A stretch of 15,759 nucleotides of DNA, from contig JBHLNZ010000067.1 in NCBI GenBank assembly GCA_048941015.1, positions 1-15,759 on the forward strand, in the 5' to 3' direction. Below the pieces are notes generated by a model. That model did not search any database. It saw nothing but the letters and a program-made list of their open reading frames with translations, and was not told the origin of the DNA. Positions 147 through 6,497 of the stretch are shown here, one piece after another (the stretch's first letter is position 1; every line of letters begins with the position of its first letter). The stretch comes from Promethearchaeota archaeon. GTDB taxonomy: Archaea > Asgardarchaeota > Lokiarchaeia > Sigyniarchaeales > SOKP01. Position numbers and translations under genes: made by a program.

Positions 147-905
147 TTACTTTTTATAACGTCTTTTTAAGAAAAAGCCTAATATCATATATCCAAAAAG
201 TCCAATAAAGGAACTAAAGAAAAAAATTGAAACCAATATTGAAATAATAAAGTTGGGATTTAAAATTCCAATGATACCCAAAATGGGGCAAAGAGGAGCG
301 ACACAAATTATAATTGTATAAGTTAATCTACTCTTTTCACCAAAACTGATATGAGTAGTAATATTAAACCATCCTGTTAATGCTAAGAAAAGCGGTATAA
401 AATAATAGGTTAATTCTGGAAATGCATAATGACTTGCTCCTCCATAGGCAAATGCATAAAAATAATTACCATAGAAATATGCAATCATTAATAAGGCACT
501 TAATGGAGTAGGTATACCAGTATATCCAAGACTATCCGAAATGTTGAATCTTGCTAATCGAAGTATAGCTCCTAATGCAAATAAGATGCACCCAATAATT
601 AATACAAAATCATAAGGATTTCCCGTTTTAAAAGCTTGATAAATTAGTATTGCCGGTGAAATACCAAATGTTAATGAATCACTCAGAGAATCAAGTTCTC
701 TTCCAATCTCATTTACCGTTCCTGTCTTTCGTGCAATATAACCATCAATTAAATCTGTACCTAAACTTATTGAAATTAAAAAAAAACCAAGAGATATGGC
801 ACTACGAGTCCCTATACCCGCACAAATAAGCGAGATTATGCCTAATGTCGATCCGATTAATGTTATATAATCTTTAAGTTTTAATAGACTCAGAATAGTT
901 GACAT
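147..905 (-). CDS. pssA: CDP-alcohol phosphatidyltransferase, PssA type (probable archaetidylserine/phosphatidylserine synthase)
   Basis: Complete CDP-OH motif DxxDGxxAR(x8)GxxxDxxxD (DLIDGYIARKTGTVNEIGRELDSLSD). PssA-typical motifs FGISPA, GAILRLARFN and YTGIPTP are present, with multiple TM helices. ATG at 905 (MSTILS) is preferred over 980, giving 252 aa. Confidence 0.85.
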   Translation of the reverse strand: MSTILSLLKLKDYITLIGSTLGIISLICAGIGTRSAISLGFFLISISLGTDLIDGYIARKTGTVNEIGRELDSLSDSLTFGISPAILIYQAFKTGNPYDFVLIIGCILFALGAILRLARFNISDSLGYTGIPTPLSALLMIAYFYGNYFYAFAYGGASHYAFPELTYYFIPLFLALTGWFNITTHISFGEKSRLTYTIIICVAPLCPILGIIGILNPNFIISILVSIFFFSSFIGLFGYMILGFFLKRRYKK

Positions 906-1033
906 TTTTTCTTCAAGTTGTAGTATTATTAATAATTTAAATCTAATTTTATTTAAATCATTTGCCAAGTATAAAAACATCCTTTTTTCCTAACCGTAAA
1001 TTTATTAGACAATAGGTATTATTGTTGATTAAT

Positions 1034-1070
1034 AAAAGTAAGAATTTATAATAACAATACAAGGATAGGA
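1034..1070 (+). promoter_or_regulatory. Putative archaeal BRE/TATA box plus SD-like site within the divergent pssA / scramblase-like intergenic region
   Basis: A purine-rich tract (aaaagtaagaa) is followed by TTTATAAT at 1045-1052, about 25 nt upstream of ATG 1073. AGGATAGGA lies at 1062-1070. The AT-rich background weakens the signal. Confidence 0.35.
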
Positions 1071-1072
1071 TT

Positions 1073-1861
1073 ATGAATTTTTGTCCTGAGTGTGGAGCTA
1101 AAGTAAGTGAAGAACAGAATTATTGTGAACAATGCGGTGCCGAATTATTAAAACAGTCTATATCTAAGGAACAATCTTCAGAAACAACATCAGAACCTGT
1201 CCCACATAAAAAGGGTGGTTTATTTGACATAAGCCGAAATTATTATGTTATCAAAGAAAAAATGTGGGATTTAGGATATGGTGATATTCTTGATGAAAGT
1301 GGAAACTTAATCGGTAAAATGAATCGAATTTTATTTAGTATACGAAGAAGAGTTGAACTTCAAGAATTAGATGGAACTGTAGCTGCAACCATTCATAGTA
1401 AGATTGTTTCAGCCAGAGGTGCCCAAGATCTTAAAGATCCTTCTGGTAATTTAATTGCGAGAATTAAGAGAAAGATTTTAACATTTTTTAGACATAAGTT
1501 TTATTTAGAAGATACTTTTGGAAACAGATGGTATGAAGCTGAAGGCGATTTTTTTGGTTGGAGTTTTAAAATTTATGATGTTTCATCAAAAAAACTTGTA
1601 GGTGAAATAGAAAAGTCAGATAGATGGCGAGATATTTTTCTGAGAGGTCTTTTTGATTTTGCAGATACTTATGCGTTAAAAATTTTAGATAACGAGACCG
1701 ATAGAAGGATTCTTGTTGGATTTGTACTTTCAATCGATAATGTTCTACATGATACAGGGGGTATGGGGCCAATGGTTGGTCCAGGTCCTTTTAGAGTACC
1801 TCCATATAGACGTGGGAGATTTCCTAGACGTTTTGGGGTACGTCCTGGTCGACGATTTTGA
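1073..1861 (+). CDS. Zinc-ribbon + LURP-one/scramblase (Tubby C-terminal fold) protein, paralogue 1, with Gly/Pro/Arg-rich tail
   Basis: N-terminal CPECG..CEQCG zinc ribbon. Repeated beta-hairpin units (ILDESGNLIGKM, LQELDGTVAATI, LKDPSGNLIARI) are followed by VGEIEK..W..FDFADTYALKI and the terminal helix DRRILVGFVLSID. This pattern is typical of LOR/scramblase barrels. Confidence 0.8.
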   Translation: MNFCPECGAKVSEEQNYCEQCGAELLKQSISKEQSSETTSEPVPHKKGGLFDISRNYYVIKEKMWDLGYGDILDESGNLIGKMNRILFSIRRRVELQELDGTVAATIHSKIVSARGAQDLKDPSGNLIARIKRKILTFFRHKFYLEDTFGNRWYEAEGDFFGWSFKIYDVSSKKLVGEIEKSDRWRDIFLRGLFDFADTYALKILDNETDRRILVGFVLSIDNVLHDTGGMGPMVGPGPFRVPPYRRGRFPRRFGVRPGRRF

Positions 1862-1875
1862 AATTTACCACAAAT

Positions 1876-1906
1876 TTCTGTTTATTTTTATCTTTATTTT
1901 TATTTC
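1876..1906 (+). terminator. Putative oligo(T) archaeal terminator
   Basis: T-rich tract (ttctgtttatttttatctttatttttatttc) just downstream of the stop at 1861. Confidence 0.35.
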
Positions 1907-1987
1907 TAAAATTTAAAAGATTAGTATAAATTTAAAAGACAAAATTTTCTTTTTTTTCTCAAAAAAATTAATCATTTTGTGAAATTA

Positions 1988-2659
1988 ATGTATTGTCAGA
2001 ATTGTGGAGCAGAAATAAAAGAATTGAATCAAAGATTCTGTCAGAATTGTGGAAGTGAAATTAAAGCTGCTATTGAAGGAACACCTAGCCCTTCTCAAAG
2101 CCCCCCTAAACCAGGTGGATTGTTTGATATTAATCGAAACTATTATATATTAAAAGAAAAATATTGGGACTGGGGTAGCGGCGATATTCTTGATGAGAAT
2201 AACAAGATCATCGGAAAGATGCATAGAAGAATTTTTAGCATTAGGAAAAAAGTTGAACTTATGGAACCCGATGGAACTATACTTGCCACAATACATGCTA
2301 AAATTATATCTGCCAGAGGTGCTCAAGATCTGAAAACTCCAGATGGTGACTTAATTGCAAGAATAAAAAAGAAAATTCTGTCTCTTTTCCGTCCGGTTTT
2401 TTATCTCGAGGCTCCAGATGGCACTCAATGGTACAGAGCTCAAGGTAAATTTTTAGGTTGGTCATATAAAGTTTATGACGTTTCAACTGACAAAATAGTA
2501 GCAGAAATTGAGAAGGCTGATAAATGGAGGGATGTATTTTTAGGTGGTTTATTAGATTTTAAAGATACCTATGCATTAAGAATCCTTGATAACGAAACCG
2601 ATAGAAGAATACTTGTTGGATTTGTTTTATCAATAGATAATGTTTTACATGATAATTGA
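1988..2659 (+). CDS. Zinc-ribbon + LURP-one/scramblase protein, paralogue 2
   Basis: CQNCG..CQNCG ribbon. The core is closely similar to paralogue 1 (shared GGLFDI, SARGAQDLK, ILDNETDRRILVGFVLSIDNVLHD). ATG 1988 is preferred over GTG 1979 by analogy with paralogue 1. Confidence 0.8.
   Translation: MYCQNCGAEIKELNQRFCQNCGSEIKAAIEGTPSPSQSPPKPGGLFDINRNYYILKEKYWDWGSGDILDENNKIIGKMHRRIFSIRKKVELMEPDGTILATIHAKIISARGAQDLKTPDGDLIARIKKKILSLFRPVFYLEAPDGTQWYRAQGKFLGWSYKVYDVSTDKIVAEIEKADKWRDVFLGGLLDFKDTYALRILDNETDRRILVGFVLSIDNVLHDN
1994..2053 (+). repeat. 15-nt direct repeat TGTCAGAATTGTGGA (1994-2008, 2039-2053) encoding both CQNCG knuckles
   Basis: Exact match with 45-nt spacing. The downstream residues are also similar (AEIK/SEIK). 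Confidence 0.8.
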
Positions 2660-2845
2660 TAAACACTTAATAATTTCTTTCCTTTTTATTTTTAGTTTAT
2701 TTAGCCGGAACTCCAAATTTAATATTTAAAAACATTTTTATTGATGAAATTTTATAATTTGGTAAAAAGAGTATTTTAATAAAGTAAATTATTATTTATT
2801 AAAGAGAAGAGATTCTAAAAACCTCAATAAAGACGTGAAAAATAA

Positions 2846-3802
2846 ATGACCGAGACATACGATGAATTCGTTGTATACGACCTAGAAAATACAGGAGAAC
2901 GCAAAAGATTAGATGTTACACAAGAGGATTTAGGAAAACAACTAAATCCCGACCAAGTTTTAATAATTATTCGTGAAGATTTGAGAAGGATATATATTTG
3001 GAAAGGTTCAAAATCTCCCGTTAGAAAGCGATTTATAAGTTCTAAAGTAGCACAAGATTTGCAAAGAGAACTCGTTAAAGATCCACGATACCATAGATGC
3101 AAAATTGTGTCTATTGATCAGGGAGATGAATTACAAGAATTTCTAAACGCATTTAAACTTGAATCTATGGAGGTAACAGAAAGATTACCTGATATGAGAT
3201 ATATAAGAAACATAGAACGAGACAGAGTTAAGGAAGTCGAACAAGTTTTGAAAGAAAAAGTGAGCGCTATAGAGGAAGATAAGCAATATTTCTCACCTAT
3301 ATTAGCCGATTCTTCTGATGATGTTGTTATTTCTTCTTTATCATATGGCATAACAATGCCTCCAAAAAGACCAGGAGAAATGATTAAACCAACAACAGTT
3401 AAGCGCTCTATTGGATTATCTGAAGAAGAAAGAACTAAAATTAAGGAAAACATTCTTAAAACTGAAGTTCCTGACAATTTAGAACGTCAAAATTTAATAT
3501 TAGGACATACTTTATATGCAGCAGTGTCTAAAGTCGCTGAAGTGTTTGGTAAAAGTATGGTTGATATTGTATGGGAAGAAGTTAGAAAACTTCCGAAAGG
3601 TATGATAGAGCTAGATAATAATATGCTTAGAGTGTATTTTAATCAACAGAAAGGAATTGTTGAAGCAGTAGAAGTTTTAAAAGAAAGAAGTGAAAAAATG
3701 AACAATTTGCCCAATGATGAAGTTAAAGCTCAGAAACAAGATAAAAAACCTTCATCATCGATAAAAAGGGATTTGCCCAAAATTCCAAAAGCTAAGGATT
3801 AG
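2846..3802 (+). CDS. Asgard gelsolin-domain protein (one N-terminal gelsolin domain plus uncharacterised C-terminal region; 1DGelX-like architecture)
   Basis: Residues ~1-105 match the gelsolin repeat pattern: LNPDQVLII..RIYIWKGSKS..KRFISSKVAQDL..IVSIDQGDELQEFLNAF (compare L...D.FIL....IYVW.G.......V.QG.E..EF...F). Confidence 0.8.
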   Translation: MTETYDEFVVYDLENTGERKRLDVTQEDLGKQLNPDQVLIIIREDLRRIYIWKGSKSPVRKRFISSKVAQDLQRELVKDPRYHRCKIVSIDQGDELQEFLNAFKLESMEVTERLPDMRYIRNIERDRVKEVEQVLKEKVSAIEEDKQYFSPILADSSDDVVISSLSYGITMPPKRPGEMIKPTTVKRSIGLSEEERTKIKENILKTEVPDNLERQNLILGHTLYAAVSKVAEVFGKSMVDIVWEEVRKLPKGMIELDNNMLRVYFNQQKGIVEAVEVLKERSEKMNNLPNDEVKAQKQDKKPSSSIKRDLPKIPKAKD

Positions 3803-3879
3803 ATTTTCTGTTTTAAGTATATTAATCCTTTTCCTTTGTAAAAAATGTATTAATTATTAAATTATCAGTTTTCTATTCT

Positions 3880-4557
3880 TTATAATTTATAAAAATCTTC
3901 ATCATCAGTTTGATTAACTTCTTGAAGTAATTTTGGTTCATCTTCATTTTCATCCACAGCTTCTGTTTCTTCTTCACTAATTTCTCTCTTTTCCGGTTCT
4001 GCCTCATAACTTATTTCTTGTTCTTTTTCTGGCTGAGGTATTGGTTTGTTTTTCTTTTTAATATTTTTCAAACCTTCAATAGCTTCCTTTCTTACGATTG
4101 GACTTCGATCTTTTAAAGCTTTAGCTAAAATATCCAAAGATATTGGGTGAGCCAATGTTCCAAGCTCCTCTGCGGCTTTTTTCCTCACATTTTCATCAAT
4201 ATCATTTAATAAAACATAGGTAAGTACTCCTAAAACCTTAATCTCCTCAAATTCACCTAGAGTATCAACTGCATCTTTTCTAACATCAGCTGCTGGATCT
4301 GAAATAGCTGTGATTGCTAATTGTTTTGAAACTTCATCACCCATACCAATTGGTTCGATTGAACTTAAATCTACTCCACAGAATTTACAAAAATTATGAT
4401 TGATTTTAATTAATTTTCCACAAGAAGGACAAATTCTCTGAGTATTGAAATCAATATTCACTTTAGTTGATCTTGTTGGAGTTGGAACTTCAGGATTTTC
4501 TCTTCTAACTTTGTATGGGTTATCATTAGGATTTGGGTAATAATTCGGTTTTCCCAT
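3880..4557 (-). CDS. Zinc-ribbon + HEAT-repeat protein with acidic disordered C-tail
   Basis: CPSCG..FCKFCG ribbon. Three HEAT_2/PBS-like repeats (DPAADVRKDAVDTLG, DIDENVRKKAAEELG, DRSPIVRKEAIEGL). E/D-rich tail. Confidence 0.8.
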   Translation of the reverse strand: MGKPNYYPNPNDNPYKVRRENPEVPTPTRSTKVNIDFNTQRICPSCGKLIKINHNFCKFCGVDLSSIEPIGMGDEVSKQLAITAISDPAADVRKDAVDTLGEFEEIKVLGVLTYVLLNDIDENVRKKAAEELGTLAHPISLDILAKALKDRSPIVRKEAIEGLKNIKKKNKPIPQPEKEQEISYEAEPEKREISEEETEAVDENEDEPKLLQEVNQTDDEDFYKL

Positions 4558-5849: not shown

Positions 5850-6182
5850 ATGCCAGATGAGTTTGATTTTAAAAATTACAAGTCAATGGAAGAATTTAGT
5901 AAAACGTTAGAAGGAACGAAGTATTTACATAATCTATATCTTAAAGCTGTAAACAATCCTACAAGAAGAGAGATTCTTGAAATAATAAATAATGCTAAAA
6001 GAATTTCAAAAGAGAACCTAATTAAAATGCTTATTGAAAAAGAGCTTATTAAAGATGAATCTAATTTTGATTATAATATAAATTATTTGATTAAAGCTTT
6101 TTGTGTTGAGAGGATCGAAGAAGGAGGGAAAATTTTTTTTGAAATTACTCAATCTGGTAAAGTGGTTGAATACTTAAAGTAA
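5850..6182 (+). CDS. ArsR-like winged-helix transcriptional regulator, paralogue 1
   Basis: LKAVNNPTRREILEII is the ArsR helix 1-2 pattern. Wing ending FEITQSGK. Confidence 0.7.
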   Translation: MPDEFDFKNYKSMEEFSKTLEGTKYLHNLYLKAVNNPTRREILEIINNAKRISKENLIKMLIEKELIKDESNFDYNINYLIKAFCVERIEEGGKIFFEITQSGKVVEYLK

Positions 6183-6221
6183 AGTTAAATTGATAATTCA
6201 GAAGTAGAGGATAATAAATAA

Positions 6222-6497
6222 ATGAGTGAACAAAAAAAAGTGAGCCATGCACAAACATTAAAAGCAGTTAATCACCCAATTAGAAGAGAGATACTTAGAT
6301 TTGTGAATGAAGCGAATAAAGTATCGAAAGATGATTTATTATCTAGATTAAAATTAGAAAAGATCCTTGAAAAAGAAGATACTTTTAATTATAATATGGA
6401 TTTTTTAATCCAAGCATTATGTGTCAAAATGGTTGAAGAAAAAGGTATCATTTATTTCGAAATATTACCGGGCGGTAAAGTTATTGAAAGTTTCTAA
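6222..6497 (+). CDS. ArsR-like winged-helix transcriptional regulator, paralogue 2
   Basis: LKAVNHPIRREILRFV, FNYNMDFLIQALCV and YFEILPGGK. Collinear with paralogue 1. GAGG lies upstream. Confidence 0.7.
   Translation: MSEQKKVSHAQTLKAVNHPIRREILRFVNEANKVSKDDLLSRLKLEKILEKEDTFNYNMDFLIQALCVKMVEEKGIIYFEILPGGKVIESF

Follow-up and report, generated by a model that had tools for sequence, protein, structure and literature searches.

We analyzed a gene cluster at positions 147 to 4,557 of a 15,759-nucleotide contig (JBHLNZ010000067.1, GenBank assembly GCA_048941015.1) from a Promethearchaeota archaeon of the Lokiarchaeia (Sigyniarchaeales; SOKP01). Hereafter, that whole stretch of DNA is called the window. 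Domain profile searches recovered all five genes that a preliminary description of the window had placed in this interval: a gene for a predicted serine-lipid synthase, two genes for zinc-ribbon (Zn-ribbon) proteins with a LOR/Tubby fold, a gelsolin-domain gene, and a gene for a Zn-ribbon HEAT-repeat protein. Across related genomes, the core of the cluster consists of the synthase gene and a paralog of the Asgard gelsolin 1DGelX, which lie head to head, with the LOR gene as a frequent member and the HEAT gene as an occasional one. The reading that we prefer, with a probability of about 0.4, is that this order-specific cluster functionally links the membrane serine lipid and the control of actin. 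Such a link is plausible because the core genes share a phyletic range and because their adjacency survives several independent rearrangements; co-regulation, lipid binding, actin activity, and physical contact are parts of it that we only infer. The features on which the analysis is built are as follows.

147..980, minus strand: PssA-type CDP-alcohol phosphatidyltransferase, candidate archaetidylserine synthase (PF01066, TIGR00473, and similarity to the PSS of Methanocaldococcus jannaschii, MjPSS)
906..1072, no strand assigned: divergent intergenic region that may hold archaeal promoters of the synthase and LOR1 back to back (alignment)
1073..1861, plus strand: Zn-ribbon and LOR/Tubby-fold protein 1 (LOR1), 262 amino acids (aa), with a Gly/Pro/Arg-rich basic C-terminal tail (PF13240, 33.6 bits; PF04525, 37.8 bits)
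1979..2659, plus strand: Zn-ribbon and LOR/Tubby-fold protein 2 (LOR2), 226 aa (PF04525, 48.7 bits)
2846..3802, plus strand: order-specific paralog of Asgard 1DGelX, 318 aa (AlphaFold, Foldseek, alignment, and tree)
2867-3154, plus strand: gelsolin domain of the paralog, residues 8-103 (AlphaFold and Foldseek)
within 2846..3802, plus strand: long helix of the paralog, residues 118-143, followed by a disordered linker (AlphaFold)
3413-3700, plus strand: domain X of the paralog, residues 190-285 (AlphaFold and alignment)
3767..3787, plus strand: C-terminal motif R-x-L-P-K-I-P of the paralog, residues 308-314 (alignment)
3880..4557, minus strand: Zn-ribbon and HEAT-repeat protein that has an acidic tail and is encoded convergently to the gelsolin gene (HEAT_2, 53.2 bits against a cutoff of 27.7; Zn_ribbon_3, 22.7 bits)

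The window is contig C6 of a 3.59-Mb genome in 144 contigs (about 30% G+C; 95% complete). With the LOR protein, the gelsolin protein, and the synthase as queries, we searched a sample of 201 genomes from the phylum, and we retrieved 31 loci from the window's order and 40 from other families. The latter comprised 20 loci around the best 1DGelX match, from 10 families, and 20 LOR loci, each covered to a radius of about 7 kb. We refer to genera g1 to g8, which belong to family f1, and to genera g9 and g10, which belong to family f2; f1 and f2 together are the window's order. In NCBI, homologs of the cluster proteins are mostly named "Promethearchaeota" or "Lokiarchaeota archaeon."

Conservation of the synthase-gelsolin gene pair

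The synthase gene and the gelsolin paralog lie no more than 3 kb apart in nine of the ten genera of the order, namely, all eight of f1 (g1 to g8) and one of f2 (g9). The sole apparent exception within f1 (genome G195) is explained by two contig ends. The preliminary description had conceded that the adjacency could be due to chance. It is more than that, since the same arrangement was seen in 26 of the related genomes that we retrieved as well as in the records' own gene calls of two NCBI chromosomes (CP070831.1 and CP070805.1).

The pair persists while its surroundings change. A LOR gene occurs between the synthase and the gelsolin paralog in six genera, among them g6, g8, and one of the g5 genomes; in g4, it is inverted in place, so that it is tandem and co-directional with the synthase. 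The synthase directly adjoins the gelsolin paralog in g3, in g7, and in the other g5 genome. In g9 (L027:9216-10501), two genes intervene, one for a Macro-domain protein and the other for a membrane protein of 234 aa without a Pfam family. The gene downstream of the gelsolin paralog is also variable: the HEAT gene and an aldolase gene follow in g1 and g2, the HEAT gene alone in g6, and a small open reading frame (ORF) in g3; g4, g5, and g8 have unrelated genes at that place. Conservation of the neighborhood holds for the synthase, the optional LOR gene, and the gelsolin paralog, which stay together through f1 and into f2, and does not hold for the gene after gelsolin.

The phyletic ranges of the two core genes coincide. 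In the 201-genome search, the clade of the window synthase was found in 37 of the 40 genomes of f1 and in all three of f2, with no members elsewhere at an E value of 1e-20 or lower. The clade of the gelsolin paralog is confined to the same order.

A predicted serine-lipid synthase

The synthase had been described as a serine-type enzyme, and residue evidence supports that prediction. The protein matches the CDP-OH_P_transf family (PF01066) at 55.6 bits against a cutoff of 22. Its best model in NCBIfam is pssA (TIGR00473), followed by the archaetidylserine synthase models, and the models for PgsA and for inositol-phosphate, choline, and cardiolipin enzymes score only 19 to 33 bits, far under the 97.3 bits of pssA. 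The closest solved relative is MjPSS (7b1k/7pow; 81 bits, compared to 23 bits for PgsA). Because the orthologs are 251 to 262 aa long, translation probably begins at Met26 (base 905). The protein would then have 252 aa, and the gap to LOR1 would be exactly the 167 bp given in the preliminary description.

The window synthase shares with MjPSS the motif of class I CDP-alcohol phosphotransferases (CAPT), D-x2-DG-x2-AR-x8-G-x3-D-x3-D, which is complete. Numbered from Met26, residues D51, D54, G55, A58, G68, D72, and D76 are invariant in 20 orthologs. In MjPSS, the catalytic serine site and the chloride network involve Ser63, Arg101, Arg104, and Phe105, together with Ala59 (PMC8633023). We mapped these structural residues onto our alignment and found that, in the same 20 orthologs, the positions equivalent to Ser63, Arg101, and Phe105 do not vary. 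The Arg104 equivalent is conserved in f1 and replaced by Trp in f2, and the position of Ala59, which is not conserved, is occupied by Arg or Lys. The synthase further differs from MjPSS in being about 50 residues longer at the C terminus, with extra hydrophobic segments, in having no detected decarboxylase partner, and in its persistent position beside a gelsolin gene. We found no description of such a neighbor in the literature searched. For the homolog of the cultured relative MK-D1 (A0A5B9DD23), serine-lipid synthesis has already been predicted in a preprint (10.1101/2025.05.16.653879).

PssA-type genes are patchy across the phylum and nearly universal in f1, despite the scarcity there of phosphatidylserine decarboxylase (PF02666). 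We found no match to the decarboxylase in the window genome at its 95% completeness or in 39 of the 41 f1 genomes, the remaining 2 of which had matches. For this reason, the serine lipid is probably an end product and not a step toward an ethanolamine lipid. Three other CDP-alcohol transferases are encoded in the window genome.

An order-specific paralog of 1DGelX

Although the gelsolin-domain protein only barely exceeded the cutoff of the Pfam Gelsolin repeat (22.6 versus 21 bits), structural modeling confirmed the gelsolin fold. In a Foldseek search, residues 8-103 of the AlphaFold model matched the Thorarchaeota ProGel structure 7c2f_B with a TM score of 0.89 (by target length) and a root mean square deviation of 1.8 Å. 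The model was based on an alignment of 46 proteins from 12 families. Its per-residue confidence score (pLDDT) was above 90 in both the gelsolin domain and domain X, a confident model of domain X had a pLDDT of 87.8, and the protein is modeled as ending in a disordered basic tail. It shares the gelsolin/cofilin domain, the linker, and domain X with the Thorarchaeota 1DGelX of Akil et al. (2020, PMC7444086). That protein severs and nucleates actin, with binding and severing demonstrated on rabbit actin, and its fusion to green fluorescent protein was concentrated in human cells at sites characteristic of nuclear membrane and endoplasmic reticulum (PMC7444086).

Domain X is homologous to the corresponding domain of canonical 1DGelX, with R214, P250, R262, and E276 nearly invariant across both clades in the 46-protein alignment; the fully invariant residues common to the two clades all lie within the gelsolin domain. 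It is modeled as one helix and five antiparallel strands and not as the coiled coil predicted for it in 2020. The domain has no clear structural relative, and we assign it no fold: it had no match in Pfam and nothing better than an E value of 0.35 in a Foldseek search against the PDB. A comparison with 48,161 chains using VIA-align gave a best Z score of 4.0, with Cache/PAS/GAF-like sensor domains at Z scores of 3 to 4.

The window protein is not an ortholog of the pan-Asgard 1DGelX, that is, of the copy that adjoins a Roadblock/LC7 gene. In our tree, a branch of length 2.53 (Shimodaira-Hasegawa-like approximate likelihood ratio test, 100) set 26 sequences from the order apart, and identity between the paralog and canonical 1DGelX is only 19 to 26%. 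The window genome also carries a second, canonical 1DGelX on contig C35, with a YjeF-type gene on one side and a Roadblock/LC7 gene on the other. This copy grouped with the canonical 1DGelX proteins of other families, and its exact placement is unsure because the tree was a quick one and the copy sits on a long branch. Compared to Thorarchaeota 1DGelX, the window paralog thus belongs to a separate, order-restricted clade with motifs of its own (LESMEV-ERL-DMRYIRNIER, Y-x-SPAL, and the C-terminal R-x-LPKIP), and it adjoins a serine-lipid synthase gene instead of the Roadblock/LC7 gene found beside the canonical form. The C-terminal motif, which is present in f1, weaker in f2, and absent from canonical 1DGelX, fits the consensus of class I SH3 ligands (+xLPxΦP), as judged from its residues.

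The architecture of the paralog varies among genera. Domain X is duplicated in g3 and g5, and the paralogs of g2 and g7 contain an insertion, a HeH/SAP-like helix-extension-helix motif (Pfam HeH at 24.7 bits, under the cutoff), that precedes the C-terminal motif. These variants are found at L016:9356-10537, L021:8784-10112, L011:7789-8925, and L026:736-1887.

The conserved C terminus raises the possibility that the synthase serves protein lipidation or sorting, like the archaeosortase-linked PssA of haloarchaea, with the gelsolin paralog as its substrate. The resemblance is one of context only, a PssA-like gene that adjoins the gene of a protein whose extreme C terminus holds a conserved motif, accompanied by a weak match of the synthase to the model for "protein sorting system archaetidylserine synthase" (NF038086, 48.5 bits). 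This score is far under the cutoff of 200 and also under that of the pssA model. Neither a signal peptide nor a PGF-CTERM-like hydrophobic tail nor a transmembrane segment is present in the sequence of the paralog, and the phosphatidylserine decarboxylase that partners the haloarchaeal system was not found in the window genome or in 39 of 41 family genomes. On these grounds, we rejected archaeosortase-type lipidation as an explanation that is very improbable.

The Tubby-fold LOR proteins

The two LOR proteins had been described as scramblase/LURP-one paralogs with a Zn ribbon. The LURP-one and Zn-ribbon parts of this assignment were borne out. Both proteins exceeded the cutoff of PF04525 (24.5 bits), with positions 31-186 of the 187 in the profile covered, and residues 66-222 of LOR2 aligned with At5g01750 (1zxu; E = 2.9e-5) over the whole barrel and the C-terminal core helix. 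The scramblase part was not: LOR1 reached 20.5 bits with the Scramblase model (PF03803), under its cutoff of 25.4, and LOR2 gave no match at an E value of 0.01 or lower. Scrambling by these proteins is therefore unsupported by family membership. To our knowledge, neither lipid binding nor scrambling has been demonstrated for any archaeal LOR member. On reading the two sequences, we found no hydrophobic segment beyond the core helix of the barrel. The barrel and the core helix are shared with the LURP-one-related (LOR)/PLSCR/Tubby superfamily (At5g01750, 1ZXU; PMC2639001), but the window proteins carry an N-terminal Zn ribbon instead of the N-terminal regions of the eukaryotic members. Tubby and PLSCR proteins have been proposed to be membrane-tethered regulators that are freed when lipid composition changes (Bateman et al. 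2009, PMC2639001).

LOR1 and LOR2, the latter of which probably starts at the ATG at 1988, are 66% identical. The LOR1 type, with its tail, is the sole LOR copy in most genomes of the genus; LOR2 shares about 75% identity with the one LOR that the sister genus has; and two tandem copies within the cluster occur only in the window genome and its closest relative. An alignment of 36 Asgard homologs had a mean column identity of 39% and 10 invariant residues. Many of the conserved positions are basic, with K108, K179, and R209 invariant and R83, R89, R113, and R128 nearly so. Across the phylum, the family is present in 95 of the 201 genomes sampled. The Zn-ribbon LOR architecture also occurs in protein clusters from Bathyarchaeota and Nitrososphaerota and hence is not a signature of Asgard archaea or eukaryotes.

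An alternative to our preferred reading is that the functional pair consists of the synthase and LOR, with LOR as a peripheral protein that senses or carries the serine lipid and the gelsolin paralog as a bystander. LOR might, for instance, be a membrane-tethered regulator freed by changes in lipid composition, like that proposed for Tubby and PLSCR proteins. The arrangement of the two genes, divergent across 167 bp in the window and tandem in g4, is consistent with this idea, as are the highly conserved basic residues of LOR and the fold of the Tubby/PLSCR superfamily. However, the synthase-gelsolin adjacency stays in g3, g7, and g9, where LOR is absent from the cluster. The 20 LOR loci of other families have no lipid-synthesis neighbor, nor any widely conserved neighbor, and LOR is present in families where no PssA-type gene was found, such as f7 (29 versus 0 of 43 genomes). 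We consider this alternative improbable.

Several LOR loci depart from the form seen in the window. In several g2 genomes and in CP070831.1, one in-frame stop between the Zn ribbon and the barrel divides the LOR gene into two ORFs, and this stop differs by genome (TAA, TGA, or TAG). The interrupted loci are G049:C7:103497-104228, G156:C23:11616-12338, G195:C36:188385-189119, and L076:5114-5836, and gene splitting, decay, or read-through could account for them. Zn-ribbon LOR genes also occur as tandem pairs in at least three other families (f13, f16, and f21; L052, L058, L059, L060, L061, and L063), and the LOR proteins of f7 are without a Zn ribbon.

Functional link or inherited neighborhood

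In an alignment of eight genus-level intergenic regions, invariant columns marked two AT-rich blocks of the 167-bp region (906..1072) that are kept within the genus, at about 930-965 and 995-1008 and some 40 to 60 bp apart. The region is a candidate for two close divergent promoters, one for the synthase and one for LOR1, and the conserved blocks fit such promoters without proving joint regulation. An AT-rich, TATA-like box precedes every gene on the plus strand, and an oligo-T-rich tract follows each of them, in line with the T-rich tracts between genes mentioned in the preliminary description. A scan for sigma-70 promoters and intrinsic terminators, which is of a bacterial type and unsuited to archaea, returned counts at the level of shuffled sequence.

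Several observations weigh against a functional link between the serine lipid and actin control. Since a T-rich, terminator-like tract and a TATA-like box accompany each gene, the cluster genes appear to be separate transcription units and not an operon. The 97.3 bits of the synthase with its best model, pssA, fall just short of the cutoff of 107, which was attained by three of its orthologs (107 to 108 bits, within a range of 92 to 108). The clusters of g3, g7, and g9 lack LOR. In g10, the synthase, LOR, and gelsolin paralog are all kept but lie on three contigs, so adjacency is not essential. Within f1, moreover, three uncharacterized genes (c2, c3, and c3') border the synthase on its other side with equal stability, which means that some of the conservation may simply reflect a block inherited as a whole. 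The preliminary description had stated that a neighborhood not conserved beyond close relatives would refute its reading, and above the level of the order we found no linkage. Neither a synthase nor a LOR gene was present within about 7 kb of 1DGelX at any of 20 loci from 10 other families, and neither a synthase nor a gelsolin gene was present at that distance from LOR at any of the 20 loci outside the order. The PssA-type genes of other families are far from the gelsolin gene; in genome G130, a single contig carries both, at a distance of 107 kb.

These observations bear on an alternative in which the neighborhood is inherited and not functional. The pair would have arisen or arrived adjacent in the ancestor of the order, its proteins would work independently, one in ordinary membrane lipid synthesis and the other in ordinary regulation of actin, and close divergent genes with interleaved promoters would be hard to separate. 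The end of the linkage at the order boundary agrees with this view, as do the equal conservation in f1 of the larger block (c3-c3-c2-synthase), the retention of all three genes unlinked in genome G165, and the appearance of separate transcription units. Furthermore, the collinearity of g1 and g2 with the window extends beyond 11 kb, which says little because of their shared ancestry and makes much of the sample non-independent. On the other hand, the pair outlasts all other adjacencies of the gelsolin gene, surviving at least four changes of the downstream neighbor, the inversion of LOR, and the insertion of two genes. It is also the only adjacency of the block that extends to f2, and the clades of its two members have exactly the same phyletic range. 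We regard neutral inheritance as the main alternative and a serious possibility, though one that falls short of probable.

If the preferred reading of a functional link is correct, the synthase would act on the cytoplasmic leaflet, and the anionic serine lipid that it makes there would be terminal. By analogy, the LOR barrel and the gelsolin paralog might then act at this lipid surface, where the paralog may sever or cap Lokiactin filaments. The analogy is to eukaryotic gelsolin, which is under the control of an anionic lipid, phosphatidylinositol 4,5-bisphosphate (PIP2). The likeness is in concept only, an anionic lipid controlling a severing or capping gelsolin at the cell cortex. The lipid here would be a serine lipid and not a phosphoinositide, and the link in the window organism is suggested only by gene order. 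A more detailed version, which we consider doubtful, is a dedicated membrane-cortex module of Lokiarchaeia-type archaea. The serine lipid would recruit or switch the 1DGelX paralog along with a lipid reader of the Tubby fold, joined in some genera by a HEAT adaptor, thereby placing severing or capping at particular membrane regions such as protrusions. If true, the module would be a prokaryotic parallel to lipid-controlled gelsolin that is independent of it. Cultured Lokiarchaeia have actin-dependent protrusions that are constantly remodeled, and their gelsolins, five of which were enriched with it, co-purify with Lokiactin (PMC13716822).

Canonical 1DGelX and the evolutionary reading

Outside the order, 1DGelX has a different partner. 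In 10 of the 20 loci, representing five families, as well as in the window genome, canonical 1DGelX is followed directly, on the same strand, by a gene for a Roadblock/LC7 protein of about 130 aa. At an eleventh locus (f5), a Roadblock/LC7 member lies about 6 kb away on the opposite strand. In f22, a Ras-family GTPase gene comes directly after 1DGelX in two of three loci, in one genome with a 4-bp overlap with the stop codon. Loci with 1DGelX and Roadblock or Ras genes include the following.

L075:970-2440, 1DGelX locus of the window's own genome (contig C35)
L036:7298-8556, 1DGelX locus with Roadblock or Ras gene
L037:7620-8839, 1DGelX locus with Roadblock or Ras gene
L040:7737-9093, 1DGelX locus with Roadblock or Ras gene
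L050:7349-8750, 1DGelX locus with Roadblock or Ras gene
L046:7687-9205, 1DGelX locus with Roadblock or Ras gene
L034:6533-8001, 1DGelX locus with Roadblock or Ras gene

The presence of Roadblock/LC7 and Ras-family GTPase genes beside 1DGelX suggests that actin severing in Asgard archaea is controlled by small GTPases and Roadblock proteins. In the literature searched, we found no mention of this neighborhood.

The Roadblock/LC7 gene, with the Ras-family GTPase gene beside it in some families, is the older and phylum-wide partner of 1DGelX. Our results correct the evolutionary reading of the cluster, which had been portrayed as a possible "pre-eukaryotic" system, a view that our results do not support. 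Because its linkage is bound to the order, its gelsolin is an order-specific paralog, and the Zn-ribbon LOR architecture occurs in Bathyarchaeota and Nitrososphaerota, the cluster is a lineage-specific innovation and not a general Asgard feature or evidence of a pre-eukaryotic state. A lineage-specific lipid-actin module is plausible. New results are the synteny of the synthase and gelsolin genes in nine of ten genera of the order, the order-specific paralogy of 1DGelX, the limits of the linkage outside the order, and the residue and decarboxylase evidence on the head group. The location of a gelsolin paralog beside the order's only serine-lipid synthase gene provides a concrete hypothesis for the membrane targeting of actin regulators.

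The HEAT gene and other neighbors

The HEAT protein, whose Zn ribbon spans residues 40-64, has an ortholog in 21 of 40 f1 genomes, and none was found in the genomes of g3, g4, g5, and g8 that were searched. Wherever its position was checked (g1, g2, and g6), the gene adjoins the gelsolin paralog, so that the neighborhood described for the window holds where a HEAT gene exists. It is an accessory member of the cluster, found only in some genera. Downstream in the window are unrelated housekeeping genes for a class I fructose-bisphosphate aldolase, a DUF711 protein, an HdrA/FlpD-like protein, a DNA methylase, a Ras-family GTPase, and a metallo-beta-lactamase-fold protein. Positions 5850-6497 hold two small tandem paralogous ORFs (110 and 91 aa) with no Pfam family that are kept beside the cluster region in most genera of the family.

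The three genes on the other side of the synthase lie beyond the left end of the window contig and were observed in the closest relative (L001:1388-6347). None has a Pfam family. One encodes a 657-aa protein with a winged helix-turn-helix-like N terminus and long coiled-coil-like regions and is convergent with the synthase; the other two encode paralogs of about 450 aa with a vWA-like N terminus and Cys-rich Zn fingers.

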